From the UHGV virus genome UHGV-0242533: a stretch of DNA of 64,000 bases; one strand, written 5' to 3'. Each line of letters opens with the position of its first letter. The stretch's first letter is position 1. This DNA comes from a virus. The position numbers and the translations under genes were made by a program. Under the pieces are notes generated by a model, which saw nothing but the letters and a program-made list of their open reading frames with translations, ran no database searches and had not been told where the DNA came from. Below are positions 27,153 to 41,306 of this stretch, piece after piece.

Positions 27153-28640
27153 ATGTCAAAGATCATTTTGGGAGACACAGGTTGTAAGGAATGTATCTCT
27201 CATGGTCGTGATAAAACCCACAACCACATGATTCTCTTCCGTAACGAAGAGACAGGTGAGGAGTGGGGGAGTTGTAACCGTTGTGGGAATTACGAAGTGT
27301 TCGAAAAGGGCACTACACCTACTCCAAACGAGAAGAAAGAGCTATCCCCTGAAGAGTTAAGAGAAGTCTTAGACGATTGCTTAGAGCTTCCTCAGGGTGA
27401 ACTTACTCGACGTTTAATCCCTAAAGCCGTATCAGAGCGTTTTGAGTGTCGAATTGGTCTAAGTCAGACTGATGGTCAGACTCCAGACAGCTACTTCTTT
27501 CCTCGTGAACGTGATGGAAACATTGTCGGTTATGAGGTTAAGCTGCTTGACAGTAAGAAGTTCTATTACGTTGGCAGTGTGAAAGAAGCAGATTTATTTG
27601 GTATGGCACAGGCTCAGCGTGGAGATGTGTACAACAAGAAGCTGTTCATTTTTGAAGACCCGCTATCCTGTATGTCAGGTTTCCATGTCCTTACAGCTTT
27701 TACAAATGCAACAAACATTAAACCAGCATGTGTTTCTTTACCGTTCGGTGCAGGTTCAATCTCTTCTGTGTTGTCTCGTAATCGAGACTTCGTAAATGGT
27801 TTTGAGGAGGTTGTGCTCTGCATGGACAATGACGATGCAGGTGAGATAGCTTTAACAAAAGGTCGTTCTTTATTCCCTCATGTCAAGTTTGCTCGTATTC
27901 CTAAAGGAACCTTCCCATACAACGGTGTGGAGAAAGAGATTAAGGATGCGAATGACATGCTTCTGTCTGGTCGTGGTCAGGAGTTATTCAACATTCTCAA
28001 GTATTCAGCAAAGCGAGAATCTCCTGCTGGCGCTGTAACAATCTTTGATTGCCTTGATGATGCTCTGAAGAAAGCGGAGTGGGGTATTCCATATCCGTGG
28101 AAGACTCTGAATGAGATGACCTTTGGTATTCGATGGGGAGAGGTGGTAGCAATCGGTGGTGGTGTAGGTAGTGGTAAGACACTAATTGCTCACGAGCTGG
28201 TTGCTCATCTGTGCTTAGAGCATGGTTTTAATGGGGGTGGCTTCTTCTTGGAAGAGAAGGTAGGCATGTCTGTTAAGAACATCGCTGGTAAGTCAGCATC
28301 AATTCCTTTCCACCGACCTGATGTTGAATATGATGAGGAGGATTTGCGTAATGAAGCACTTCGTTATGCAGACAAATTCTTCTTGTATGACAACTTCGGA
28401 CAGAATGAATGGGAAGACATTAAACAGTGTATCCGTTTCTGGGTAGTTGAAAACCAGTGTAAGTTCATCATCCTTGATAACATTACCGCTCTGGTATCTC
28501 ATTTAACACCTTCAGAGATTAACACTGAAATCAGTAAGATTGCTTCAGAGCTTGCTGGTATGTGTAAAGAGTTAGACTTTACCGCTTTCGTTCTATCTCA
28601 CCTTAATGCTCCGGCAGGTGGTGCTCCTCATGAAGAGGGT
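27153..28640 (+). CDS. DNA primase-helicase (T7 gp4-like), exon 1
   Basis: Zn finger C-x2-C...C-x2-C, primase region, Walker A GGGVGSGKT, SHLN...HEEG motif; the ORF hits a stop (28644-28646) inside the conserved helicase domain. Confidence 0.8.
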
Positions 28641-29436
28641 AAGTAACAAGCCCTCTATAAATTCTGTGAACTCAGGGGAACTCTAGAACAGACAATCCTG
28701 AGCTAAGCCTAGTAATAACCCTCCTATAAGGAGGTAATATGAAACAGTATCTTGGAAAATATACGGTTCATAAAGATGGACGAATAATCAGTCACTATAA
28801 CGGGAAGCCTTTAACCATCTCTCTTTACAAACCAAATAAACAGGGTAAGAAGATTGTTTATCCTAGAGTTAGGCTCTGTATTGACGGGAAAGGTAAATGG
28901 TTTGCACTACACAGGATTATAGCTGAATGCTATATCCCAAATCCAGAAAATCTTCCACATATAAACCATAAAGATGGAAACAGATTGAATAACTCTGTTG
29001 AAAATCTTGAATGGTGCAGTCATCTACAGAATATACGGCATGCCCAAGAACACAACCTCAACCCTAAAGGAGAGAGGCAAGGTATTGCAGTTGCAACTGA
29101 AGAGATTGTAAGGAGAATTAGAAGTTTAAGAAGGGGTGGTATGTCTTATAAAGATATCGCTGAGCTTGTTAAACTTAAGAGAAGAACAGTCGAAGCTATT
29201 GGTTCTTATCAAAACTGGAAACACATAGAGTGAGTGGTTATTACTAGGAAAGTGCAACGACTAGGGTGGGCGTAAGCCCGAAGTACAGCCAAGCGGTGTC
29301 ATTAACATTGACTTAAATGGAAGCGCAGAACCTTCAAATTGAAGTGAAGATATAGTCTGGTCTACATGGGGACATGTAGCAGTTCAGAGATAGAACCTGA
29401 ACGGGGTGTGATTAGCGATCACATCTGAACACAACG
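28641..29436 (+). mobile_element. group I self-splicing intron (about 0.8 kb) carrying an HNH homing-endonuclease ORF
   Basis: Host gene frame shifts by +1 across the insert; 3' region has AAGATATAGTC (near-canonical group I S element), GACTA/TAGTC P7 candidates and three stable hairpins; exon 1 ends in T, insert ends in G; boundaries approximate (+/- 6 nt). Confidence 0.6.
28739..29233 (+). CDS. HNH homing endonuclease (intron-encoded)
   Basis: H-x-H...N...N-x-x-x-N-L-x-W...H-x-x-N pattern (INHKDGNRLNNSVENLEWCSHLQN); strong RBS AAGGAGG. Confidence 0.8.
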   Translation: MKQYLGKYTVHKDGRIISHYNGKPLTISLYKPNKQGKKIVYPRVRLCIDGKGKWFALHRIIAECYIPNPENLPHINHKDGNRLNNSVENLEWCSHLQNIRHAQEHNLNPKGERQGIAVATEEIVRRIRSLRRGGMSYKDIAELVKLKRRTVEAIGSYQNWKHIE

Positions 29437-29739
29437 GGACAGGTACGTGAAGTACAGTTCACTGGCTCTCGTTCTCTTATGCGTTGGTGTCAGTGTATCA
29501 TTGGCTTTGAGCGTGACAAGCAAGCTGACGGCTTAGCTAAGAACCTCTCAGTCATTCGATTACTGAAAGAACGTAACTACGGTCAGACAGGTGTTTGTTA
29601 TACTAAGTATATCAGTGAAACCGGTAGACTTGTAGAAAGGGAAGACTTTGAAGTTGATGAAGATAATCCATTCGTTTTAACTAACGGAGAGGATGCAGCT
29701 TCTCTCGTCAACCAAGCAGATGGAGCTTCACCGTGGTAA
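29437..29739 (+). CDS. DNA primase-helicase, exon 2 (helicase C-terminal motifs)
   Basis: VQFTGSRS...[10 protein letters not shown] resumes the helicase motifs as recalled from T7 gp4; no in-frame start codon before these residues. Confidence 0.6.
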
Positions 29740-30290
29740 AGAAAAAGAAGAAAGTGTTTGCATTCGATATCGAGAGTAATGCACTGTACGATGACATAAC
29801 TAAAGTATGGTGTATTTATATCTTTGATGTTGAAACTGGTGAAAGGTGGGGCTATCGGCCTCACCAAATTGAAGATGGGATTCATAAACTTACAGAAGCA
29901 GATGTGCTCGTGGGTCACAATATTATTGACTTCGACCTTTGTGCTCTGAAGAAAATGTATCCCAATCTAATTGAATATCGTTTTAACGTCTTTGACACTT
30001 TATGTCTTAGTCGATATCTTAAACCTGACCGTATTGGTGACAGTCCTGAGTATCCGAAAGGCGACCCTAGACATGGCCCAAGAGGTCATGGCTTGAAGCA
30101 ATGGGGTGAGTTCTTAGGGGAACTTAAAGGTGATTACGGTGAGCAAGAGGAAGCATGGGATGCTTTCACTGAAGATATGTTTACTTATTGTGAACAGGAC
30201 GTTAACTTAACTGTTAAGGTTTATCTTTTCTTGTGTGAACTCACGGGATTTGACCCTTACGACCCACCTTCATTATATTGGAAAATGTAA
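29733..30290 (+). CDS. DNA polymerase I family, 3'-5' exonuclease domain as a separate gene
   Basis: FDIESNAL (Exo I), HNIIDFD (Exo II), YCEQDV (Exo III); own GTG start and stop. Confidence 0.8.
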
Positions 30291-30291
30291 A

Positions 30292-31662
30292 ATGATTGTT
30301 ATCCCGATTAACCGAATTGAAGATAAGGTTGCTCAACAACCTGATATTGCTGTTGGTCGTCACTTCATTGAACAGTTGATTAACAACAACTTGGTTCCAG
30401 ACGGTATCTGTCCCATCATTACTGGTGGGGCTGTTCGAGATGCTGTGCTTAATAACACAGCTCCACATGACATTGATATCTTTATTGTCAGAGGACAAAC
30501 ACCAAGAACTCAAAACACATTCATCCCAACTGATCGTTGGCAAGCTCTTGGAAGAGAGATTGAAAGTAATGTGAAGGAATGGCTAGAGTCACAAGATATC
30601 GAATATGCATCCCTTCTTGCTGAAGCTACAAACGAATCCTATGCTGGGGGTTCTCAATTAACATTCACTGATATTATTGAGTTTCAGTGGAATGGAACCC
30701 GCATTCAATTCATGTTTAATTATCCTACTTCTATTGAAGAGGTATTGGATAATTTTCCTATGATGTGCCGTGGTGCGATAACTCTTGACAGCTTATTCAT
30801 GACCCCTCATGGATATTTAGCTATGACCGCTCCTTGCCCTGTGGTTGTTTCTAGTCGTGAAATCAGATACGTTCACAAGAAGTGGCCTAATTCACAGGTA
30901 TTAAGATTCTCCGCTCCATCTGTTGCATATCAATATATGGCACAAACTCGATACCTTCCTACACCTCAACCAGTTAGTCATCTGGTCAACGAACGAGGTC
31001 AGGTTGCTCCTGTTGAGGATACAACAAGTGCTCAATATTGTGTTAACCGAGACATGAGTCGATTCTTTGGAATCCCTTACGAAGAAATTCAGTTAATGTC
31101 AAGTGTTCATGGCTCTGGTCAGATTCGTGCGTATTGGTCTGAAGGGTTGACGAATTTAACAACTAATACAGGAGGGGATCTCCTTGGTCGAGAAGAGGAA
31201 CCTAACCGACACAATGCAATTGAAGGGGTGTTTGTAGCCCCTGCAATGCGTCGAGCACAAGAGTCACGAAGAGTAAGCCCTACTCGTAGAACATCTTTTG
31301 AAGAGGCTCTTGGTGTTACTAGCGATTCATTTGAGCAGTGGTTGTCTAGACGTTCTAATGGTCTGTCAAATGGTTTGACTGCTAGCCGTCACCAGTTCTC
31401 TGGTCAGGGTTTTGCTGTTGGTGATATTGACCAAGCTGCTCGTGTTATATGGACTGATGAAGCATCTGCTCAAGATGTGGTTAATAATCTCGCCGATCTT
31501 GATATTCCTTCTCATGGCGAGCTAGCTGAGACTGTCAGTCGTAGTCTCGCTGATCGCTTTGTTGCTGATAACCCTGAAGTATTAGAGCCTCAAACCAATA
31601 CAATTAGTGTTGCTGACGTAGTTGGTGATGGATTCTCTTTTTACGCACGAACAAATAACTAA
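30292..31662 (+). CDS. Pol-beta-superfamily nucleotidyltransferase with CCA-adding-enzyme/poly(A)-polymerase-like head motif
   Basis: GGAVRDAVLNNTAPHDIDIF matches the GG-x-VRD...P-x-D-x-D signature; downstream 400 aa unrecognised. Confidence 0.6.
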   Translation: MIVIPINRIEDKVAQQPDIAVGRHFIEQLINNNLVPDGICPIITGGAVRDAVLNNTAPHDIDIFIVRGQTPRTQNTFIPTDRWQALGREIESNVKEWLESQDIEYASLLAEATNESYAGGSQLTFTDIIEFQWNGTRIQFMFNYPTSIEEVLDNFPMMCRGAITLDSLFMTPHGYLAMTAPCPVVVSSREIRYVHKKWPNSQVLRFSAPSVAYQYMAQTRYLPTPQPVSHLVNERGQVAPVEDTTSAQYCVNRDMSRFFGIPYEEIQLMSSVHGSGQIRAYWSEGLTNLTTNTGGDLLGREEEPNRHNAIEGVFVAPAMRRAQESRRVSPTRRTSFEEALGVTSDSFEQWLSRRSNGLSNGLTASRHQFSGQGFAVGDIDQAARVIWTDEASAQDVVNNLADLDIPSHGELAETVSRSLADRFVADNPEVLEPQTNTISVADVVGDGFSFYARTNN

Positions 31663-31671
31663 GGAATAAGA

Positions 31672-32205
31672 ATGAGTTTACTAGGAAGTGTTGAACTGCA
31701 TGATGTAATTGACAATGGCTATCTGGATGCGGAGCATAAGTATGTTAACGCTGCTAGTGTGGATATCCGTATTGGTGATACTATCCTTGTTGAAGAACAG
31801 GCTGATGGCATCGTTGATATTGATGCGAAAGAGAATCTTCAGTGGAAGGAAGTAAAGATTCCTGAAGAGGGTTTGGTTATCACTCCGGGTCAGTTCTTCT
31901 TGGCTCACTCTATGGAAGAGTTTAATCTTCCAGATAACATCTCAAGTCTGTTTGTCCTGCGTTCGTCTATGGCTCGTTGTGGTTTGAACCACCTTCACGC
32001 CGGTTGGGCAGATGCAGGATTTAATAGCAGTAAGCTGACATTTGAATTCCATAACGTAACCAAGCACCACAGTTTACGAGTTCGTGCTGGTATGCGTGTA
32101 GGTCAGATGGTAATGTTTGAGCACTCTCATGCAGGGGAACACTCCTATGCAGTGAAGGGTCGTTATAATAACTCTGAAGGTGTAGTTGCATCTAAAGGTG
32201 TGTAA
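31672..32205 (+). CDS. dCTP deaminase / dUTPase-superfamily protein
   Basis: LRSSMARCGL and ADAGFNS motifs. Confidence 0.65.
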   Translation: MSLLGSVELHDVIDNGYLDAEHKYVNAASVDIRIGDTILVEEQADGIVDIDAKENLQWKEVKIPEEGLVITPGQFFLAHSMEEFNLPDNISSLFVLRSSMARCGLNHLHAGWADAGFNSSKLTFEFHNVTKHHSLRVRAGMRVGQMVMFEHSHAGEHSYAVKGRYNNSEGVVASKGV

Positions 32206-32403
32206 ATGAAAAAATGGATTGTTCGTGTACATGATAACACGACTGGAGAGTTAGTAGCTGTAGATTTTGTTAAGACTCGAGAGCACGCACGTAGAGTCAA
32301 AAATCAATACAAGTCTACTTTTAGACTTAACAAGGTTACATTAGGAAGGGCTATTGTGAATAGCGAAGGTGCTTTTATTGCCAACAGTAAGGTTTATTAT
32401 TAA
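32206..32403 (+). CDS. small tandem-paralogue protein (copy 1 of 3)
   Basis: About 65 aa, basic, ends VYY. Confidence 0.5.
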   Translation: MKKWIVRVHDNTTGELVAVDFVKTREHARRVKNQYKSTFRLNKVTLGRAIVNSEGAFIANSKVYY

Positions 32404-32612
32404 TGAGACCGATCACTATGAGACAATTTTGGTTAGCAAAGATCAAGTGGGCATCAGGTGGCATGACTATGACTGCACTACCCACTCGCCAACAAGCTCG
32501 AGATTTTAAAAAGACTATGCTTACTGGTGACGTGGTCAATAGTATCAGTATCCATAAGGCCAAGGAGTATTCTTCTGGTCGTATTTATATCAGCGGAAAG
32601 GTGCATTACTAA
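32403..32612 (+). CDS. small tandem-paralogue protein (copy 2 of 3)
   Basis: Ends VHY; start-stop overlap. Confidence 0.5.
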   Translation: MRPITMRQFWLAKIKWASGGMTMTALPTRQQARDFKKTMLTGDVVNSISIHKAKEYSSGRIYISGKVHY

Positions 32613-32821
32613 TGAAAAAGATGTGGGCTATTCGTGTTGTCTGGGAACAGAAACAACACTTAGGTAAAGATAATATCAAACTGTTTAACACTCGCAAAGA
32701 GGCTCGTGTCGCTAAAAAGAATATGAAAGCTCTAATAGGAACTGTTAAAAGTGCTGACATTCATCGCTGGTATGAAGACCCTAGCTCGGGTTCTTTTATG
32801 TCTAAAGTAATTTATTACTGA
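32612..32821 (+). CDS. small tandem-paralogue protein (copy 3 of 3)
   Basis: Ends IYY; start-stop overlap. Confidence 0.5.
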   Translation: MKKMWAIRVVWEQKQHLGKDNIKLFNTRKEARVAKKNMKALIGTVKSADIHRWYEDPSSGSFMSKVIYY

Positions 32822-32845
32822 TTGGTAGTAGATATGGTAACTCTC

Positions 32846-32854
32846 AAATGTATA
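32846..32854 (+). promoter_or_regulatory. phage-type promoter-like element AAATGTATA
   Basis: One mismatch to TAATGTATA; 40 nt upstream of gene 32894. Confidence 0.3.
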
Positions 32855-32893
32855 TAGAGTACAATAAGAATTTGTATTTTACAGGAGAGAGTT

Positions 32894-33223
32894 ATGTTAG
32901 ATTTGAGTAAAGTGGCCCCGCCCACTGAAGAGATTACAAAATCCAAGGTGATGCAACAGTTTTATCATCGTGATATGCTTGGTCGCTTTATCAAGAATCG
33001 TGATGTTGTTGCTTGGTCTATTGGTAATCAGGGATATCTGTTGAAGGTTCTTCAGGTTACAGGTTCAACTGCTAAGCGAGTTAAGGTGTATGACCCTGAA
33101 ATGGGGCGTTCTAAGTCAGTAGACCCACAGAACTGCATCGTAATTACCCAGCAGGTAATGGATAATATTGCACGTAACGTTGCTAACTCAGTTGAACTTG
33201 ATGGAGAAAACCCAAATGCATAA
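32894..33223 (+). CDS. hypothetical protein (109 aa)
   Basis: ORF. Confidence 0.6.
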   Translation: MLDLSKVAPPTEEITKSKVMQQFYHRDMLGRFIKNRDVVAWSIGNQGYLLKVLQVTGSTAKRVKVYDPEMGRSKSVDPQNCIVITQQVMDNIARNVANSVELDGENPNA

Positions 33224-33779
33224 GAATGTTTTTGATTTACCTGATATTGGTCGTTCAGAATATAACATGTTAGACCGGTCTGAGCTTTCAATCTCTCGCC
33301 TTGAAACAATGCAGGGTATGATTAGTGGAAACAGCCTAGAACACATCCTGAGCTGCTTGCAAGCTAACATGGAACTCTTGCATATCAAAGCTAAAAACTA
33401 CCACTGGAACGTCTCTGGTGCAGGATTTCAGGGTGTTCATGGTATGTTTGACGAGCTGGAAGATTACGCACGACAGGTAGGAGATCGTATTGCTGAACGT
33501 ATGCGTTACCACTGTGTTAAAGTGGACGCTACAGCAGCTAACTACCTCTCTCATGCTTGGTTCTCAGAGGGTAACGCTGATCTAGACATGGACGGTATGC
33601 TCTCTGATATGTGCATGACCTTGATGTGTATTATTGAGAAGATGGATGAGTTTGATGGCGATTTAGCCACTTACCCTGTCGATCAGAGTATGCTTCAAGA
33701 AATTAATGAAGGTCTTGGCAAGTATTGCTACTTCGTCAAGAGCAACATGTCCCATTCAAGTGGTGACGTGTCTTACTAA
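33216..33779 (+). CDS. Dps-like ferritin-superfamily protein
   Basis: KAKNYHWNVSGAGFQGVHGMFDE...DRIAER signature; ATG 33216 with GGAG RBS. Confidence 0.65.
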   Translation: MHKNVFDLPDIGRSEYNMLDRSELSISRLETMQGMISGNSLEHILSCLQANMELLHIKAKNYHWNVSGAGFQGVHGMFDELEDYARQVGDRIAERMRYHCVKVDATAANYLSHAWFSEGNADLDMDGMLSDMCMTLMCIIEKMDEFDGDLATYPVDQSMLQEINEGLGKYCYFVKSNMSHSSGDVSY

Positions 33780-33839
33780 AACCTCCGCCCTGTCTCCTAA
33801 CCCGAGGTGGGGCGAACTTATTTATAAGGATATAGATAT

Positions 33840-34019
33840 ATGTTATCAGCAATCGTATGGGGTATTTGGGCTATCTTTATCGGTGGTGGTATTTATTGGG
33901 CTTCTGGTAAGCTTATTGAAGAAACTCCTGATAAGAAAGGTGAGATTCAAACAGCATCAACCATCATGGTTATCGTAGCTGTTGTTATCCCGTTCCTGCT
34001 TCACCTCCTGACTGCATAA
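33840..34019 (+). CDS. small two-TM membrane protein (59 aa)
   Basis: Not in ORF track; hydrophobic segments. Confidence 0.4.
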   Translation: MLSAIVWGIWAIFIGGGIYWASGKLIEETPDKKGEIQTASTIMVIVAVVIPFLLHLLTA

Positions 34020-34027
34020 GGATTTAC

Positions 34028-34303
34028 ATGTCTAAAGTAATTAAGTTTTATAGTGATCAGTGTGCTCCATGTAAAGCAATGGCTCCTACCTTTGAGAAGG
34101 TTGTTAAGGAGTTTGATGTAGAAGTGGAAGAGATTAACATCCTTGAAGGTGATGGTCGTGAACAAGCTGTTAAGTATGGTGTACGAAGCATCCCTGCTTT
34201 CGTTGTGCCTGACCGTAACAGTGGTGCACACTACAGCCTCTCTGGTATGCAGACTGAAGCAAACCTGAAAGCATTTTTGGACACAGCCCTGAGCAATAAG
34301 TAA
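34028..34303 (+). CDS. thioredoxin-like protein (CAPC active site)
   Basis: FYSDQCAPCK, SIPAFVV motifs; 91 aa. Confidence 0.7.
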   Translation: MSKVIKFYSDQCAPCKAMAPTFEKVVKEFDVEVEEINILEGDGREQAVKYGVRSIPAFVVPDRNSGAHYSLSGMQTEANLKAFLDTALSNK

Positions 34304-34318
34304 TAAGGATATTCACGG

Positions 34319-34975
34319 ATGAATGAACAACTACAAGCAACATTAATCGAAGCTATGGGAAGCGATCGTAGCGTAGTAAACGCAGCTCGAGTTTCCTTTG
34401 GCGTAACCCGTGAAGGTGATTTAAATGAACGTGATGAACGTCTCATCAACTTCCTCGCAAGAGAGAAGCATGTTACCCCATTCCGACATCCGCAAGTCAG
34501 TTTCCGATGCAAAGCACCTATCGCAATTGCGAGACAGTTGGGCAAGCATCAGGTTGGATTCTCGTGGAACGAAATGTCCCGGCGGTATAAAGATGGAGAA
34601 GTTGAAGTCTTCATCCCTAAAGAGATTTTTGCGAGACCTTCGGACCTCCATGCAGGTTCAGGGACACAGCTCATCGACGGAGAACGAGCTGAAGCATTAA
34701 TGTTGATTAACGATGCATATGAAGCTTCTCTAGCAGCATATGACAAGTTGATTGAGTTTATTGCACCAGAGCAAGCTCGATTTGTTCTTCCTCAGGGAAT
34801 GATTACTGAGTGGGTGTGGACTGGTTCTTTGTATGGATGGTTTGAGTTGTGCCGTCAACGACTCTCCTCTCATGCTCAGTATGAAGTTCGAGTGTTTGCT
34901 AAATCCTTAGATGAAGAAATGGCTAAACTCTACCCAATCTCATGGGCAGCTCTGAAGAAAACCTTGGAGAATTAA
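34319..34975 (+). CDS. thyX: flavin-dependent thymidylate synthase ThyX-like protein (variant signature KHQ-x7-S-x-RY)
   Basis: FRHP...QLGKHQVGFSWNEMSRRY and RFVLPQG...YEVR regions. Confidence 0.65.
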   Translation: MNEQLQATLIEAMGSDRSVVNAARVSFGVTREGDLNERDERLINFLAREKHVTPFRHPQVSFRCKAPIAIARQLGKHQVGFSWNEMSRRYKDGEVEVFIPKEIFARPSDLHAGSGTQLIDGERAEALMLINDAYEASLAAYDKLIEFIAPEQARFVLPQGMITEWVWTGSLYGWFELCRQRLSSHAQYEVRVFAKSLDEEMAKLYPISWAALKKTLEN

Positions 34976-35120
34976 TATTGGAAGAAGATGATGATGTGTT
35001 CTGCACTAAATGTGGGATGACAGTTGAGGATGCATATGACCCAAGTGTAGAAATTTGTCCATGTTGCGGAGTATGTGAATATTGCTGTTCCAACAACTCA
35101 GAGGATTAGCAGGAGAAAGA

Positions 35121-35306
35121 ATGGATAAGAAAGTGTGCAGCTTCTGTAAGAAAGAGAAGCCTATCGCCAACTTTAAGTTTAATCCTGTAACCGGTTTGAC
35201 TCATGTCATGTGTCACTCTTGCAGGATATACCTTGAAACAAAGCACACCATTAACAGGTTGCACTATTATCACCCAACAACATTCAAATTTAAGGTTGTG
35301 AAATGA
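35121..35306 (+). CDS. small zinc-finger protein
   Basis: CSFC...CHSC; start ambiguous (track 35082). Confidence 0.45.
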   Translation: MDKKVCSFCKKEKPIANFKFNPVTGLTHVMCHSCRIYLETKHTINRLHYYHPTTFKFKVVK

Positions 35307-35632
35307 TTGACAGTAATACATTTAGGACTTCAAATGGAAGTGAGATAAGTCCCGCTGAAGTAATTAATCGGCACAGAAGGCAATTGATCATCCATTCCTA
35401 TTTGTATTACTGGTTGGATGACCCTATCTGGTCTGACGATAAATGGCAACAAGTTGCTAATGACCTAGTGGAGCTGCAAGCCCTGTATCCAGAGCCTACT
35501 GGAGTCTTTGACAATGAATTCAAAGATTGGGATGGTTCTACAGGGATGCACTTCCCACACAATGAGGCTGTTGCTTGTATGGCGACAGCTGTTTACAGGA
35601 TTCATAAAGATATGAACCATGAAGTGCTCTAG
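35303..35632 (+). CDS. small protein resembling the N-terminal (Ia) domain of NAD-dependent DNA ligase
   Basis: HSYLYYWLDDPIWSDDKWQQVANDLVELQALYPEP resembles the LigA N-terminus as recalled. Confidence 0.4.
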   Translation: MIDSNTFRTSNGSEISPAEVINRHRRQLIIHSYLYYWLDDPIWSDDKWQQVANDLVELQALYPEPTGVFDNEFKDWDGSTGMHFPHNEAVACMATAVYRIHKDMNHEVL

Positions 35633-35804
35633 ATGTGAAGGAACAAACCTTCATTTAAGTAACAAGGTTATCAGAGAGCTTGCCAAAGGCTCTCCAACCA
35701 AAGGGAAGAACAAACGATTTACTAACGTCAGGGTTTATACAGCAATCTGTAAAGACTGCTTAACCACTGAGTGTCATTACGAAGAAATTGGAGAGCGTAA
35801 ATGA
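35619..35804 (+). CDS. small zinc-ribbon protein
   Basis: CSRC...CKDC. Confidence 0.45.
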   Translation: MKCSRCEGTNLHLSNKVIRELAKGSPTKGKNKRFTNVRVYTAICKDCLTTECHYEEIGERK

Positions 35805-36538
35805 GTCGTCGTCAATCACGGAAAGAATCACGGAAAGACCTTCGTCGGGAAGCACTTGTTACTCGTAAGGGTAAGCGAGAGTATGAAGAGGTGGTTTTAG
35901 CAAAGCCTGTAGTCCCTCAGAACCAGTTTCAGTCTGAGCTACTCAATGCTATTAAGACTAAACAAGTTGTGTTCACAGACGCTCCTGCGGGCTGTGGTAA
36001 GACCTTTGTAATCACTTCCACGGTTATCGATGCACTGAAGAGTGGTAAGATTCAGAAGATCATCCTGAGTCGACCTTCAGTTGGCATGGGTAACTCTCTT
36101 GGGTTACTTCCGGGAGGAATGCGTGAGAAGTTTGAACCATACCTGATGCCTATCATTGATGTTATTACTCAGCGATACGGTAAGGGATTCTATGAATGCC
36201 AAATCGGAAATGGTAACATTGAATTTGTACCTCTGGAATATCTCCGTGGTCGCTCTTTCAATGATGCCATTGTTATCGTAGATGAGTTCCAGAACACAAC
36301 TAAGGATGAAGCCTTCTCCATCATGACTCGATTGGGAGAAACCTCTCAATTGTTCTGTATGGGTGATACAAACCAGCATGATATGCGTGGTCGCGAGAGT
36401 GGTCTAACTTGGGCTACTAACTTTATTGATGAACACGATCTGTATGAGTTTGCTGAGATTGTAGATGGTGAATCAGATGATATTGTTCGTTCTGGTTTCT
36501 GTAAGGCGATTGTTAAAGCAATGGAAAAGAAAGCTTAA
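35801..36538 (+). CDS. phoH: PhoH-like ATPase
   Basis: Walker A APAGCGKTF, Walker B IVIVDEFQN, GDTNQHD. Confidence 0.75.
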   Translation: MSRRQSRKESRKDLRREALVTRKGKREYEEVVLAKPVVPQNQFQSELLNAIKTKQVVFTDAPAGCGKTFVITSTVIDALKSGKIQKIILSRPSVGMGNSLGLLPGGMREKFEPYLMPIIDVITQRYGKGFYECQIGNGNIEFVPLEYLRGRSFNDAIVIVDEFQNTTKDEAFSIMTRLGETSQLFCMGDTNQHDMRGRESGLTWATNFIDEHDLYEFAEIVDGESDDIVRSGFCKAIVKAMEKKA

Positions 36539-36549
36539 ACAGTAACTTA

Positions 36550-36558
36550 TAATGTATA
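36550..36558 (+). promoter_or_regulatory. phage-type promoter element TAATGTATA
   Basis: Exact 9-mer 37 nt upstream of ATG 36595; same 9-mer at 41307 and on the minus strand at 50680. Confidence 0.45.
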
Positions 36559-36594
36559 CTCCTTAGTGTACACTGATATATTAAGGAGTTCTAA

Positions 36595-36912
36595 ATGGCA
36601 GACCATGTAGGAAAGAGAGATTATGCACAAGAAAGACGTACCGCAATTGCCCGTGGTGAAACAGGCGTTGGGAGCAAGAGCGGAGATGCTCAGCGCCACC
36701 GTGCACGTCGCATCGTTGAAAAGCGCGATGGAAAAGCTGCTGTCAGAGGTAAAGACGTTGGACACAAACGAGCTGTCAAGTCTGGAGGCTCTAATGCGTC
36801 AAGCAACTTACGTGTTGAATCAGTCAGCTCAAACCGTTCAAACGGCGGCAAAAGTGGTGATCGAGCTGGAAAAGCAGCTGGAGCACGCAAAGGGGCTTTA
36901 AGCTCATCGTAA
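36595..36912 (+). CDS. basic Gly/Ser/Arg/Lys-rich low-complexity protein (105 aa)
   Basis: ATG with AAGGAG RBS directly after promoter element; an overlapping ORF in another frame (36623..36901) also looks protein-like. Confidence 0.45.
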   Translation: MADHVGKRDYAQERRTAIARGETGVGSKSGDAQRHRARRIVEKRDGKAAVRGKDVGHKRAVKSGGSNASSNLRVESVSSNRSNGGKSGDRAGKAAGARKGALSSS

Positions 36913-36917
36913 TATGA

Positions 36918-36950
36918 GGCTACCCAAATGGGTGGCCTTTTCTTTTATAT
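36918..36950 (+). terminator. rho-independent terminator
   Basis: GGCTACCC-AAAT-GGGTGGCC + TTTTCTTTT. Confidence 0.6.
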
Positions 36951-36980
36951 AAACCAAAATAAACTTCTTAGGTAATAAAT

Positions 36981-37235
36981 ATGTCTATTGTAAAAATCGT
37001 AAATATTTTTGATGTAACCAGAGATGGCAAGATTGTTAAGTGGACTTTCACTAACCACCACAACAAATCAAACAAGATCATCGAACGGATGATTGAGATT
37101 AACCCAAAAACAGCTCGCACTAACGTACTCCTTCGCGGAGCTGATGGAAAATTTATCTCTTATAAGAATAAGAACGTAGAAAAATCTTTCCGTGTTGCAG
37201 TAGAAAATCTCATCCCATTCCCTAAAGGAGTTTAA
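36981..37235 (+). CDS. tandem-paralogue protein (copy 1 of 2)
   Basis: KTARTNVLLRGADGKFISY...AVENLIPFPKG. Confidence 0.6.
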   Translation: MSIVKIVNIFDVTRDGKIVKWTFTNHHNKSNKIIERMIEINPKTARTNVLLRGADGKFISYKNKNVEKSFRVAVENLIPFPKGV

Positions 37236-37236
37236 T

Positions 37237-37521
37237 ATGAATAAGTTAGCTATGGTTCAAATTCGGGACACATACACTAACCGCCCGGAGCAGAAACCGC
37301 GTACTTGGTCTTATCTGTTGGCTGAAAGTAAGACTATTGACAAATACGCTGTAGGGATTGATACTATTCCAACTAGTGTCACATTACTCCCTCACAAAAC
37401 AGCCAGAACTAATGTGATGTTACGTGATAGCAAAGGTAAGTTTATCTCTTATCGTGATTCAAGAATCAATAATGAAATTAAATCTGCTGTGGAATTTTTG
37501 ATGCCATTCCCAAGAGGTTGA
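37237..37521 (+). CDS. tandem-paralogue protein (copy 2 of 2)
   Basis: KTARTNVMLRDSKGKFISY...AVEFLMPFPRG. Confidence 0.6.
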   Translation: MNKLAMVQIRDTYTNRPEQKPRTWSYLLAESKTIDKYAVGIDTIPTSVTLLPHKTARTNVMLRDSKGKFISYRDSRINNEIKSAVEFLMPFPRG

Positions 37522-37524
37522 GTT

Positions 37525-37938
37525 ATGCCATTACCAGCTAGACACCAAAACCGTTTCCTAGTTCTAAAGTGGGATGATATTGAAATGAATCTCACTGAGC
37601 ACGAACTAGATTTGTTCCATGAATTATTATCAGAGATTCGCTCTGGTATTCCTGAACGTCAGTATGTTGTTATCAGTGATAAACACCCTCAAGAGTTTGA
37701 AGAAGCTTGGGGCATGAAGCTGGCCTACATTCAGAGAGCTATTAGAGAAAGAGAAGAAGTTGCTAATCAGAGGGTTGTGGCCCATCTGGTACGAGAGCAG
37801 CCTCGTGGGGTTAGGTCTTCTTATTCTCCATCTACTTGGGCACAAACAAATGCAGCAATGAGATCATATGCTGTTGATTCCACATCATTGGATGTAGTAG
37901 AAGATAACCAAGCATTTACAGATTTACTTTACCAATAA
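37525..37938 (+). CDS. hypothetical protein (137 aa)
   Basis: ORF. Confidence 0.6.
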   Translation: MPLPARHQNRFLVLKWDDIEMNLTEHELDLFHELLSEIRSGIPERQYVVISDKHPQEFEEAWGMKLAYIQRAIREREEVANQRVVAHLVREQPRGVRSSYSPSTWAQTNAAMRSYAVDSTSLDVVEDNQAFTDLLYQ

Positions 37939-37954
37939 TTTAAAGGAGTATAAA

Positions 37955-39799
37955 GTGAGCAACCCGGACGCTCTTCCATTTTTGACAGAGATGACTGTCG
38001 CTGATATAATCTCTAAGCAAGCAAAGCACGGAGTGAGTTTCAACCGAAGAAATGCTCGGTGGTATGTTCACCTCCTTAAAGAGATTATTGTTAATATTGA
38101 CAGAGAGTTGATTCCTCTCTTACCTAAGATGAGATTAGATGGCTCTACTTACATGAAGCCGTTTAAGAAGTCTGGAGCTTTACAGAAGTGGCCTCAAGCC
38201 TATTGTGATAGGGTTGGGCTGAAGAGAGAAGATATTGGTGGAGCTTTCACCTGTGTCGAATACGTAGACTTTGACCCATCGAAAGATGCACGAGTTAAAG
38301 AAGCTCTTATGGATGAGGGCTTTCTTCCTCCAGAGTTTAACGTATCTAAGAAGCCTTGGAATACTTTCGAAATTAAGAAAGATATGAGAAAGTATGGAAC
38401 ATACCAAGCATGGTATACTGCTTGGATGCGAGGTAATGCTAAGCAAAAACAGACAGCCGAGATGGTTGACGCTGATATTAAGAAGTTCTTAGAAAAGCAT
38501 TTCAGGTTTAAGACTAAGAATTACATGAAGGCTTACGTATTTGGTTTGGGGTTGAACCCTAATCGCCGTAATCCTGTAACGTTTGATGAGATTAAGAAAG
38601 CACTAGCCACATCAAACAAGTGGCCTACAGCTCCTACAAACCTCGAGGAGACTCTTGAAGAAGGGTTAGGGGGTGAGCTAGGGAGTGTCGGAAGTTTGCT
38701 TAAGAAACGCGTTGTAGCGGCTCACAGGCTAGGTCTTATCAGTGGACTCATAGCAAAGGAGCGCGAAGATGGTAAACTTTCGGCAGAAGCTAACAGCTGC
38801 GCTACGCCGACTTTTCGATTCAAACATCGTATCGTGGTTAATATTCCCTCCCGTGGTCTGTTTGGTCACGAGTGTCGCAGTTTGTTTGAGTCTGACTATA
38901 ACTCAGACAGTGATCACTCTCGTCCTTTCGTTATTACTAACGTTGTTCCTGATGGTTGTTATATACGAAAGGGTACTAACGTAATTTACGAGAAAGGTAA
39001 GCCGGGGAAGAAAGACAAACCTGTAGGTGCTTACAAATATTACATACCCGCTGGTAAAGAAGTATTCTTAGGGTATGATGGTTCTGGACTTGAACTTCGT
39101 ATGCTCGCTCACTACCTCATCAAAGAGTGTAGAGATATGCTTGCTGAAGCAATCGAAGAGAACAATCCAGCTAAGAAAGCTCTGGCAGAACGCGGTCTAG
39201 CTTCTGCTATTATGTATCGTGATATTCTCCTTGAAGGTGATATCCACTCCCACAACCAGAAACTTGCTGGTCTTCCTACTCGTGACAATGCTAAGACATT
39301 TATCTATGCATTCAACTACGGTGCTGGTGATGCTAAGCTTGGTTCAATTGTAGGTGGTGGGGCTGACGAAGGTTCAGTGATGCGAGCACGTTTCTTAGCA
39401 GAGAACCCATGTATTGCAATCCTCATTGATCGCATGACAGAGAAAGCTGCTCAAGGATACTTGATTGGTGTTGATGGTCGTAAGATTACAATGAGACGAG
39501 ATGCCACTGGTAAAGTTATGGTTCATAAAGCCCTTAATACACTCCTGCAATGTGCTGGTGCTGTTGTTATGAAATATGCTATGATGTTCCTTAACAAGTG
39601 GATTGAGAAGGATGGGGTTCGTTGTGCTAAGGTAATTGATATGCACGATGAAGGCCAGTTCTCAGTGAATCGTAATGATGTACAGAAACTCAAAGAGCAC
39701 ACTGAGCTTTGTGTTAAGAAGGCTGGTGAGTACTTGAACATGGAATGTCCTCTGGCTTCTGATTGTCAGATTGGATTAAATTGGATGCATACGCACTAA
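37955..39799 (+). CDS. DNA polymerase I family, polymerase domain as a separate gene
   Basis: Motif A DGSGLELR, motif B RDNAKTFIYAFNYGAG, motif C HDEGQF; GTG start with AAAGGAG RBS. Confidence 0.85.
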   Translation: MSNPDALPFLTEMTVADIISKQAKHGVSFNRRNARWYVHLLKEIIVNIDRELIPLLPKMRLDGSTYMKPFKKSGALQKWPQAYCDRVGLKREDIGGAFTCVEYVDFDPSKDARVKEALMDEGFLPPEFNVSKKPWNTFEIKKDMRKYGTYQAWYTAWMRGNAKQKQTAEMVDADIKKFLEKHFRFKTKNYMKAYVFGLGLNPNRRNPVTFDEIKKALATSNKWPTAPTNLEETLEEGLGGELGSVGSLLKKRVVAAHRLGLISGLIAKEREDGKLSAEANSCATPTFRFKHRIVVNIPSRGLFGHECRSLFESDYNSDSDHSRPFVITNVVPDGCYIRKGTNVIYEKGKPGKKDKPVGAYKYYIPAGKEVFLGYDGSGLELRMLAHYLIKECRDMLAEAIEENNPAKKALAERGLASAIMYRDILLEGDIHSHNQKLAGLPTRDNAKTFIYAFNYGAGDAKLGSIVGGGADEGSVMRARFLAENPCIAILIDRMTEKAAQGYLIGVDGRKITMRRDATGKVMVHKALNTLLQCAGAVVMKYAMMFLNKWIEKDGVRCAKVIDMHDEGQFSVNRNDVQKLKEHTELCVKKAGEYLNMECPLASDCQIGLNWMHTH

Positions 39800-39992
39800 A
39801 TTCAGAACTGAAAGACCGGAACACAAATGAACTAGTCTTATTGAGTAGTTCATCATAAGGAGATTGAAGTGGAAGAGATGCCATCGGATTGGTGTTATCG
39901 TCAAAGCGCCATCTGTAGTGAACAAGGACGTGCTGATGAAGCACAATACTATTTAGAATTAGCTGAATTATGGAAAGAGAGAGAGGAAAAGA

Positions 39993-40169
39993 ATGACTGC
40001 AACTGAACTAAAAGAAACCCTATCAACTGAAGAAGGTAAAGCTTTCTTCTTATCTCAAGTACACTCTATGGGTAAAGATGCCCTTCGCCAAGCAGTCGTT
40101 GAGTTAACTGGTGTAGTGATTGATTTGAGTATTGAAAATGAGACACTTGAAGCTAAAGTGAATAATTAA
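39993..40169 (+). CDS. hypothetical small protein (58 aa)
   Basis: Not in ORF track; ATG with GAGGAAAAG upstream. Confidence 0.35.
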   Translation: MTATELKETLSTEEGKAFFLSQVHSMGKDALRQAVVELTGVVIDLSIENETLEAKVNN

Positions 40170-40215
40170 ATAAGAAGCTGCCTTAGGGCGGCTTTTCTTG
40201 TCTAAAGGATTTGAC

Positions 40216-40608
40216 ATGAATATTGGTTTAGATTATGATGACACTTACACAGCAGATAGACGTCTGTGGAGAGATGTGATAGGCTTGATGAAAGAGTACG
40301 GACATGATGTAAGATTCGTGACTTTCCGTTTCTCAGAGCCTAATGGTTATGATAATGTAGATATCCTCTACGATGCAGAAACCCTGCAAATTCCTGTCAT
40401 CTTTTGTAATGGTGTGCAGAAGGATGAGGTATGTCGACAGTTAGGTTTCTTTGTAGATATCTGGATTGACGACTTCCCTGTTGGAATCCCCAAAAAGGAC
40501 CACCTAGATGGGATGCTGAAGGGAGTAAGACTTAACGACCTTAGGGCAGCACCTCCTGTAGAAATACCCGCCCCTGTGTACTCTGAAGAGCCGTTGGTGA
40601 TACGTTAA
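40216..40608 (+). CDS. HAD-superfamily phosphatase (5'(3')-deoxyribonucleotidase-like)
   Basis: Motif I IGLDYDDT near N-terminus, IWIDD later. Confidence 0.5.
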   Translation: MNIGLDYDDTYTADRRLWRDVIGLMKEYGHDVRFVTFRFSEPNGYDNVDILYDAETLQIPVIFCNGVQKDEVCRQLGFFVDIWIDDFPVGIPKKDHLDGMLKGVRLNDLRAAPPVEIPAPVYSEEPLVIR

Positions 40609-40757
40609 TAAGGAAGAAGAATGATTTGGGTTCACACATATAAGATTGGAAAGAAAGAGATGACCGTTGTACATCACTCCGAAGAAAGCGCTAATGCTTC
40701 CAAGGTAATCCTTAAGGGAGAAGTTAAAGTATACGCTGAAGTAAAAGGAACAGAAAA

Positions 40758-40946
40758 ATGATCAATAAAATTAAAGATAATGAATACATACTTAATTCTT
40801 CTATTTTAGATAATGGAAATATTATTGATTTCATTACTCTTTCAGAGCTAAAAGAGTTAGTAGATTCTTTATACTCAGAGGAACAAAATCGCTTGTTACA
40901 AGAGTCTCTCAGTGGGGACTATGTTTGTGATGGTTGTTTAATTTAA
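40758..40946 (+). CDS. hypothetical protein (62 aa)
   Basis: ORF. Confidence 0.45.
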   Translation: MINKIKDNEYILNSSILDNGNIIDFITLSELKELVDSLYSEEQNRLLQESLSGDYVCDGCLI

Positions 40947-41306
40947 CTTTCTTTATATTAGGTAATAAGTAATGAGTATTTATAAGAAGTTTCTTATCTT
41001 TGTTTCAGTCTGTTTAGTGTTAGATATAATAATTATTTATTCTTTTAAATAGAGAATCAAAGTCCCTAGGAGTCCCTACAACCTAAATCAAGGATTCCTT
41101 AATTCTCTATTTTTATCTCGCAGGTGGCTCCTGCCCTTCCGGTAGTCTCTCAATTTCTTACAAACTTATGAGAGGTTGTCGTCTGCGCCTTATCGTCGTC
41201 AGTCCCGTGCAATAACTTTATCAGCTATACAATATATACATTACTAGTGTGTTATATCTACTACCAAAGATACTTATATTATATAGTACTCTTATCGGTA
41301 TAAGCA

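Follow-up and report, generated by a model that had tools for sequence, protein, structure and literature searches.

Separate genes for the exonuclease and polymerase domains of a T7-like family A DNA polymerase in a Kuravirus of Escherichia coli

The window analysed here, the whole stretch of 64,000 nucleotides from the virus genome UHGV-0242533, is that of an E. coli phage of the phiEco32/SU10 type (Kuravirus). It carries the exonuclease (exo) and polymerase (pol) parts of a T7-like family A DNA polymerase as two genes, both on the + strand, with 7,664 bp and some 19 ORFs in between. We consider it probable that this arrangement stems from an old fission of a T7-like polymerase that left both halves functional, most likely rejoined non-covalently; the physical complex and a difference in the timing of expression are the parts that we infer. 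The separation is an old and conserved trait of this phage group, already annotated and published, and the arrangement is for that reason ordinary for the group. The additions made here are small: a 63-100 aa insertion in the polymerase, two middle-promoter motifs between the genes, and a candidate intron with an HNH gene in the primase-helicase gene.

The two genes and the position of the cut

The two halves are the following.

29733-30290, + strand: predicted stand-alone 3'-5' proofreading exonuclease, 185 aa, GTG start (Pfam, PHROG, AF2 fold)
37955-39799, + strand: predicted polymerase subunit, 614 aa, comprising thumb, palm and fingers of the T7-like family A type but no exonuclease domain (Pfam, T7 gp5 alignment, AF2 fold)

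By comparison with T7 gp5, whose residues 3-178 were aligned with the exonuclease ORF, the catalytic residues are in place: D12 and E14 in Exo I (DxE), H62, N63 and D68 in Exo II (Nx2-3[FY]D), and Y152 and D156 in Exo III (Yx3D). Among 46 stand-alone exonuclease homologues, D12, E14, H62, N63, D68 and D156 were invariant and Y152 was present in at least 90%. These motifs are those of a DEDDy (DnaQ-like) 3'-5' proofreading exonuclease. The ORF matched Pfam DNA_pol_A_exo1 (3.3e-8) and a PHROG named 'DNA polymerase exonuclease subunit', and its AF2 model (pLDDT 94) had the T7 gp5 exonuclease domain as best PDB match, with TMq up to 0.75. The start, identical to that in the SU10 annotation, overlaps the primase-helicase stop codon by 7 nt, and the gene ends with its own stop codon. 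A frameshift fusion of helicase and exonuclease was considered and rejected: no slippery sequence precedes the helicase stop, and the exonuclease has its own GTG.

The polymerase ORF also starts with GTG, with the ribosome-binding site AAAGGAG 8 nt upstream; it matched Pfam DNA_pol_A (3.5e-23) and aligned with T7 gp5 through to the C-terminal His of the T7 protein. Motif A (DxxxLE) is formed by D375 and E380, motif B (RxxxKxxxFxxxYG) by R443, K447, Y451, Y455 and G456, and motif C (HDE) by H564, D565 and E566, all of them invariant in 80 polymerase homologues. Y451 occupies the position of T7 Y526, the motif B Tyr that governs ddNTP discrimination, which is a further likeness to T7 gp5. Judged by these motifs the protein is a T7-like family A polymerase. 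The fold predicted by AF2 (pLDDT 93) is, overall, nearest to that of T7 gp5: each of the first 27 PDB matches is a T7 DNA polymerase, with E values down to 1e-25 and TMq of 0.55-0.59.

With respect to T7 gp5, the polymerase half has two extra insertions, both clade-specific (residues about 133-232 and 312-369). One, mostly helical and of 63-100 aa, follows the region of the thioredoxin-binding loop and was found in all the exo-less polymerases sampled; the second, rich in beta structure and located before motif A, was found in most of them, and neither was present in any of the seven fused relatives sampled. The loop itself, of about 76 aa in the T7 thumb, corresponds to a homologous stretch of only ~48 aa in the window polymerase, where a 19-residue T7 block is unmatched; this stretch is just as short in the fused relatives as in the split ones.

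In the alignment with T7 gp5 and the fused relatives, the last exonuclease residue lies at about T7 residue 201 and the first conserved polymerase helix comes directly after it, which places the cut in the inter-domain linker. The C-terminal tail of the exonuclease, GFDxxNPP, is conserved and spans this former linker. In sequence and in predicted fold, each half most resembles T7 gp5; this is the closest solved structure for both of them, and shares the DEDDy exonuclease residues, motifs A-C and a neighbouring primase-helicase as partner, although it is one chain of 704 aa and not the product of two genes. The sequence-only reading had described each half as a complete gene and the cut as lying at the domain boundary, and we confirmed both statements, its coordinates being exact and the Pfam matches, own starts and catalytic motifs all in place.

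The genes between and beside the two halves

The neighbouring primase-helicase gene, the recognizable genes located between the two halves and the putative transcription signals are listed below.

27153-29739, + strand: primase-helicase gene, predicted exon 1 27153-28640 and predicted exon 2 29437-29739 (Pfam DnaB_C, Toprim_2)
30292-31662, + strand: nucleotidyltransferase with a CCA-adding/poly(A) polymerase head domain (phrog_12715 3.6e-250; SU10 gp074; Pfam PolyA_pol at 6.5e-4, which misses the curated cut-off)
31672-32205, + strand: dCTP deaminase-like gene (Pfam DCD 3.5e-34)
32206-32821, + strand: three tandem small paralogues of 65, 69 and 69 aa (~25% identity)
32846-32854, + strand: AAATGTATA, which differs by one mismatch from the phiEco32/SU10 middle-promoter motif tAATGTATA and lies within the 72-nt gap that precedes the SU10 CDS68 homologue
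32894-33223, + strand: conserved hypothetical gene (phrog_10984), homologue of SU10 CDS68, the first 'middle' gene
33216-33779, + strand: ferritin/Dps-like 'DNA-binding protein' (Pfam Ferritin 2.9e-7; phrog_3636)
34028-34303, + strand: phage thioredoxin, 91 aa, CAPC active site (Pfam Thioredoxin 2.1e-13)
34319-34975, + strand: ThyX flavin-dependent thymidylate synthase (Pfam Thy1 1.3e-43)
35303-35632, + strand: stand-alone Nlig-Ia domain, the NAD+-binding domain of NAD-dependent ligase (Pfam Nlig-Ia 9e-35)
35801-36538, + strand: PhoH-like ATPase (Pfam PhoH 1.7e-56)
36550-36558, + strand: TAATGTATA, exact match to the middle-promoter motif, in the 56-nt gap from PhoH to the next gene
36916-36939, + strand: terminator-like hairpin, 6 of its 10 pairs being G-C, with TTCTTTTATA after it (intergenic)
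36981-37521, + strand: two tandem paralogues of 84 and 94 aa (phrog_6814)

The ORFs between the halves are tightly packed on the + strand, no intergenic gap exceeding 72 nt. The sequence-only reading had counted 15 or more genes here, in agreement with the number of ORFs, and the functions it named (nucleotidyltransferase, dCTP deaminase-like, Dps-like, thioredoxin, ThyX, PhoH and sets of paralogues) were all recovered by Pfam, PHROG or comparison. The first member of the trio of small paralogues, the only one scanned against PHROGs, is phrog_4939, and the pair at 36981-37521 shows 56% identity over 41 aa (E 3e-16). Copies of the Nlig-Ia gene in relatives are annotated 'DNA ligase'. The phage thioredoxin aligns with TrxA residues 24-107, its N-terminus being shorter than that of E. 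coli TrxA. Taken as a whole, the region is a conserved but plastic nucleotide-metabolism block and not a recent island.

Upstream of the exonuclease, the primase-helicase gene holds a clean insertion of 796 bp, preceded by T at base 28640 and ending in G at base 29436; joined in frame, the predicted exons encode 596 aa, as many as SU10 gp076 has. An ORF inside the insertion matched HNH_3 (1.3e-8). Rfam RF00028 was matched at 34.6 bits (E 7e-7), under its gathering score of 50, and the scan of the whole window at the curated Rfam thresholds returned only a tRNA. We regard the insertion as a candidate for a mobile group I intron that carries an HNH gene, and its splicing is predicted.

The same genes, order and split point are found in the split polymerases of phiEco32, SU10 and YF01 (Kuravirus) and of the LUZ24-like phages (Bruynoghevirus), from which the window shows no essential difference. 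The SU10 region is 94.7% identical; the window differs from it in having three copies of the small paralogue instead of four, in lacking a few SU10 ORFs and in the candidate intron of the primase-helicase gene.

Distribution of the split and its origin

Sixty-three phage records are colinear with positions 29000-41000 of the window over at least 80%. The order primase-helicase, exonuclease, variable genes, polymerase is common to Suseptimavirus, Grimontviridae, LUZ24-like Pseudomonas phages and metagenomic contigs, as the locus comparison proposed in the sequence-only reading revealed when it was run. The gap between the two genes ranges from 1.6 kb in a LUZ24-like phage through 6.4 kb in PKM.Lu.22.1, 6.5 kb in the metagenomic contig L011, 8.5 kb in Suseptimavirus, 8.6 kb in SU10 and more than 10 kb in L010 to about 19.5 kb in Vp_R1, and the two genes co-occur in every lineage examined. 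The novelty implied by the sequence-only reading fails because the split is already annotated and published: RefSeq lists SU10 gp075 as 'DNA polymerase exonuclease subunit' and gp051 as 'DNA polymerase', PHROGs names the same exonuclease subunit, and the separation was described in 2012 for the LUZ24 group (PMC3517423) and again in 2023 (PMC9965538). In its passage on the split, PMC3517423 cites the 2008 phiEco32 paper.

It is extremely improbable that the separation is an assembly artefact, or that the halves are rejoined by trans-splicing, a split intein or frameshifting. No support for this was found, although a candidate intron does lie in the adjoining primase-helicase gene. Considering that the 63 records come from independently sequenced genomes and are colinear, mis-assembly, the alternative left by the sequence-only reading, is excluded. 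Moreover, the exonuclease has its own stop and the polymerase its own ribosome-binding site and start, the ORFs between them have their own starts, and no Rfam family reached threshold in the region. Mass spectrometry detected the SU10 polymerase and thioredoxin proteins, the former at 69.2 kDa against 69.1 kDa predicted, which is the size of the polymerase alone (PMC4281155).

The four exonuclease relatives at E <= 1e-30 are all short; among the 150 best relatives, 80 correspond to the N-terminal domain of a fused polymerase at least 550 aa long. In 49 of 50 NJ bootstraps the exo-less polymerases formed one clade that left the fused forms outside, and this single clade indicates a single old gene fission. 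An ancestral T7-like family A replicative polymerase gene would have been cut once, long ago, in the linker between proofreading and polymerase domains and inherited by this Kuravirus; changeable nucleotide-metabolism and small accessory genes would then have filled the space between the halves.

That a mobile island entered an intact polymerase gene in recent times, either in this phage or in ancestors close to it, is very improbable and already contradicted by the comparative data. Close relatives do differ in paralogue copy number and in the presence of small ORFs, and homing endonucleases do invade replication genes of the phage group. However, the genera and families that share the split have polymerases only 39-50% identical, the exo-less clade arose once, the G+C of the region is about equal to that of the flanks, the ORFs between the genes are syntenic across Gordonclarkvirinae, and DCD, ThyX, PhoH, NTase and Trx recur in Grimontviridae and metagenomic contigs. 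The choice offered by the sequence-only reading, assembly in trans or mosaic insertion, thus misfits the evidence: the separation is old, inherited and clade-wide, and the insertion is contradicted by the single clade, the spread over families and the conserved block of genes.

Assembly of the two products and timing of expression

Both products of the proposed fission would be functional. The exonuclease would bind the polymerase non-covalently via the former inter-domain interface and so restore a proofreading replicase of the T7 gp5 kind, which would work with the neighbouring primase-helicase. Taking into account the co-occurrence of the genes and the precedent of the S-SBP1-like cyanopodoviruses, assembly in trans is likely; a demonstration of the complex in this phage clade was not found in the literature. 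The S-SBP1-like PolA is also T7-like family A, split at the domain boundary, and in the AF2 model its two parts are predicted to re-form the fused architecture, the model superposing on that of a relative with the fused gene; according to the same paper, the exonuclease domain is required for the stability of family A polymerases (PMC10201439). Its genes are adjacent and overlapping as a result of a recent 1-nt frameshift, and close relatives with the gene intact exist (Czernecki et al. 2023, PMC10201439), whereas those of the window clade lie 1.6 to about 19.5 kb apart (7,664 bp in the window), the split is old and in several families, the polymerase has clade-specific insertions, and no fused member occurs inside the exo-less clade. 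The two splits are independent events.

In E. coli Pol III, alpha and the proofreader epsilon (DnaQ) are likewise a polymerase and a DEDD exonuclease on separate polypeptides in one complex. Alpha is of family C and not homologous to the window polymerase, and the likeness is in organisation only. T7 gp5 uses E. coli thioredoxin, whereas the window phage encodes its own shortened thioredoxin, whose binding to the polymerase is putative; between or beside the two genes of the LUZ24-like phage clash no thioredoxin gene is annotated.

The exonuclease may be translationally coupled to the primase-helicase gene and lies in a block classed 'early' in SU10, while the polymerase lies in the 'middle' block, downstream of the two middle-promoter motifs; these classes are those of SU10, assigned by homology to phiEco32. 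SU10 has a promoter upstream of CDS68 and a middle promoter between CDS56 and CDS57, and its authors noted that early transcription may read through into middle genes (PMC4281155). By analogy, the two genes are probably expressed at different times. The hairpin at 36916-36939 intervenes between the second motif and the polymerase gene, so that transcription of the polymerase from these motifs is putative. A perfect sigma-70 consensus, TTGACA-17-TATAAT with TG, was also seen at 37982-38010, within the first 56 nt of the polymerase ORF; its -10 element coincides with conserved D-I-I codons and its -35 element is missing in Suseptimavirus, so that it may be either functional or a chance match.

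The overlap with the primase-helicase stop codon and the early placement would suit an exonuclease without a stable polymerase complex, that is, a free nuclease engaged in brief proofreading in trans or in an early job with the primase-helicase (processing of primers or host DNA), the polymerase acting alone. In addition, the exonuclease of contig L011 is not an immediate neighbour of the helicase gene, and its position is thus flexible. This reading seems unlikely to us, considering that the two genes are together in every lineage, that the conserved tail across the former linker is retained, and that both the stability argument and the model of the independent split (PMC10201439) go against it.

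Within the preferred reading of fission and non-covalent rejoining, a specific adaptation and not a neutral cut is conceivable, if doubtful: the polymerase insertions and the GFDxxNPP tail would form a new docking surface for the exonuclease, the phage thioredoxin or the helicase, and the early and middle placement would let the phage time or dose proofreading apart from synthesis.

For annotation, the short gene after the primase-helicase should be read as the proofreading subunit and the 'polymerase' gene as not truncated, neither being a sign of assembly error. Family A polymerases are usually single chains whose exonuclease domain is thought necessary for stability. This makes a two-subunit version that is natural, old and widespread useful for studying how proofreading is coupled to synthesis, and such a version could help to engineer separable polymerase modules.

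Two genes for one polymerase

The family A DNA polymerase of this phage is encoded by two separate genes, one for each T7-like half:

29733-30290, + strand: exo, 3'-5' exonuclease, 185 aa, Pfam DNA_pol_A_exo1, aligning with T7 gp5 residues 3-178
37955-39799, + strand: pol, polymerase, 614 aa, Pfam DNA_pol_A, aligning with T7 gp5 through the C-terminal His

The sequence-only reading had proposed two genes divided at the domain boundary; the open reading frames, the Pfam matches and the T7 gp5 alignments bear this out, and the split polymerase is real and was described correctly. To place the split point, T7 gp5 and seven fused relatives, which carry both domains in one chain, were aligned with exo and pol from the window, a LUZ24-like phage and PKM.Lu.22.1. 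Exo ends at T7 residues 200-204, directly before the first conserved helix of pol; by this alignment, the cut lies in the inter-domain linker. Residues D12, E14, H62, N63, D68, and D156 of exo were invariant in 46 stand-alone exo homologues, Y152 was kept in at least 90% of them, and the residues of motifs A, B, and C were invariant in 80 pol homologues. Both are intact genes under purifying selection. The AlphaFold2 models had a pLDDT of 94 for exo and 93 for pol, and T7 DNA polymerase was the best solved-structure match for each.

The 12 kb at 29000-41000 matched 99 phage records, the best of them with 94-95% identity. Nearly all belonged to phiEco32/SU10-type phages of Escherichia or Shigella (Gordonclarkvirinae, Kuravirus), and from these matches we take the window to be a Kuravirus genome read in the early/middle-gene direction. 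The sole Rfam match in the window at the curated threshold was a tRNA-Arg with anticodon TCT (13283-13359, + strand).

For this phage group the split is ordinary, and publications as well as annotation already record it. RefSeq names SU10 gp075 "DNA polymerase exonuclease subunit," PHROGs holds families of the same name, and the split was described in 2012 for the LUZ24 group (PMC3517423, where a 2008 phiEco32 paper is cited) and again in 2023 (PMC9965538). An independent split is known in S-SBP1-like cyanophages (PMC10201439, 2023); there the genes are adjacent and of frameshift origin, whereas here exo and pol lie 7,664 bp apart. The AlphaFold2 complex of that cyanophage split superposes on a fused relative (PMC10201439).

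The intervening region and the origin of the split

The spacing holds about 19 open reading frames, all on the + strand, with intergenic gaps of at most 72 nt. The nucleotidyltransferase, dCTP deaminase-like, ferritin/Dps-like, thioredoxin, ThyX, and PhoH genes that the earlier reading had placed here were confirmed, and its paralogue arrays correspond to two small paralogue sets. Of one tandem family of small genes the window has three copies (32206-32821) and SU10 four (L001 5770-6588), and the SU10 small ORFs gp063, gp061, gp055, gp050, and gp049 are without counterpart in the window. The kinds of intervening gene recur across lineages (dCTP deaminase, ThyX, PhoH, nucleotidyltransferase, thioredoxin, and ribonucleotide reductases); the sets vary in detail, even between the window and SU10.

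Two of these products have unusual forms. A 109-aa protein (35303-35632, + strand) consists of Nlig-Ia only (Pfam, 9e-35), the domain with which NAD-dependent ligases bind NAD+; it lacks the adenylation and OB domains and is named "DNA ligase" in related records. The thioredoxin (34028-34303, + strand; 91 aa) is N-terminally shortened, aligning with E. coli TrxA residues 24-107, and its active site is CAPC, not CGPC. The phage thioredoxin has already been suggested as a processivity factor (PMC7881722).

The order primase-helicase, exo, intervening genes, pol is common to many relatives, over a wide range of spacings.

Spacing between exo and pol in the window and its relatives
clash, LUZ24-like Pseudomonas phage: 1.6 kb
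PKM.Lu.22.1, Grimontviridae: 6.4 kb
L011, metagenomic contig: 6.5 kb
window, Kuravirus: 7.66 kb
vB_EcoP-101114UKE3, Suseptimavirus: 8.5 kb
SU10, Kuravirus: 8.6 kb
L010, metagenomic contig: >10 kb
Vp_R1, Vibrio phage, Grimontviridae: ~19.5 kb, spanning the ends of the linear record

In a neighbour-joining tree of polymerases (410 shared columns, 50 bootstraps), the 25 sampled exo-less polymerases all grouped into a single clade in 49 of the replicates, with the fused polymerases outside. An exhaustive search for exo relatives gave four with E ≤ 1e-30, every one short; among the best 150, 80 were the N-terminal part of a fused polymerase 550 aa or more in length. The mosaic insertion offered earlier as an explanation is excluded, if recent, by the layout shared among many relatives and by the single exo-less clade. 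Mis-assembly is excluded too, as the split layout recurs in many relatives and 63 of the 99 records run colinear with 80% or more of 29000-41000. The comparison of polymerase loci that had been proposed shows an inherited split and not a local accident. The simplest reading of these sequences is a single old fission of a T7-like polymerase gene, after which genes accumulated and turned over in the space between its two parts.

In some relatives an HNH or homing endonuclease gene lies within pol, and the polymerase then comes in three pieces (exo and the N- and C-terminal parts of pol):

L009 1537-3952: interrupted pol of phage PE006
L007 8726-12044: interrupted pol of Vp_R1
L011 16980-19561: interrupted pol of the metagenomic contig

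Database clusters of about 450 aa, covering 72-74% of the query, agree with this pattern. The pol gene of the window is uninterrupted.

The primase-helicase gene and expression

The primase-helicase gene (27153-29739) contains, by comparison with SU10, a clean insertion of 796 bp (28641-29436) with an HNH endonuclease ORF inside (28739-29233). A group I intron core, RF00028, was detected at 29097-29379 below the Rfam threshold (34.6 bits, E 7e-7). The last base of the 5' exon is T, that of the insertion is G, and joining the exons keeps the reading frame and yields a protein as long as SU10 gp076, 596 aa. Of 71 phage records that matched, those with the insertion were the two of Escherichia phage O18-011 alone, at 85% identity. 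By these sequence features the insertion is likely to be a mobile group I intron. The C-terminus of the protein (29650-29739) is acidic and its last residue aromatic, and it may resemble the Phe-ended, gp5-contacting acidic tail of T7 gp4.

The stop codon of this gene and the start of exo overlap by 7 nt, which suggests coupled translation. In the SU10 paper, exo (CDS75) and primase-helicase (CDS76) belong to the early class (CDS69-125) and pol (CDS51) to the middle class (CDS25-68), classes assigned by homology with those measured in phiEco32. The middle-promoter motif tAATGTATA occurs in two exo-pol intergenic gaps of the window, at 32846 (one mismatch) and 36550 (exact), matching in position the middle promoters that the SU10 paper describes, and a terminator-like hairpin lies at 36916-36939. 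By analogy with these relatives, exo and pol may follow different expression schedules; the SU10 authors considered that early transcription possibly reads through into the middle genes.

Within the first 56 nt of pol there is a candidate promoter with a perfect sigma-70 consensus (37982-38010, + strand; TTGACA, 17 nt with TG, TATAAT; 12/12). SU10 and PE006 have it unchanged; Suseptimavirus keeps the -10 element alone, which coincides with the D-I-I codons.

Features that accompany the split

An insertion of 63-100 aa, at residues 133-232 of the window pol and mostly helical in the predicted model, was present in 72/72 aligned exo-less polymerases; fused relatives have 7-14 aa at this site (n = 7). 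Most exo-less polymerases carry a second insertion, of 23-62 aa, before motif A, and in the clade's stand-alone exo proteins a common GFDxxNPP tail at the C-terminus spans the former linker. No description of the insertions or the tail was found in the literature consulted. Exo and pol co-occur in every lineage examined, and most likely their products would come together at the ancestral interface as an enzyme like T7 gp5. The insertions and the tail accompany the split and may represent adaptations to it.
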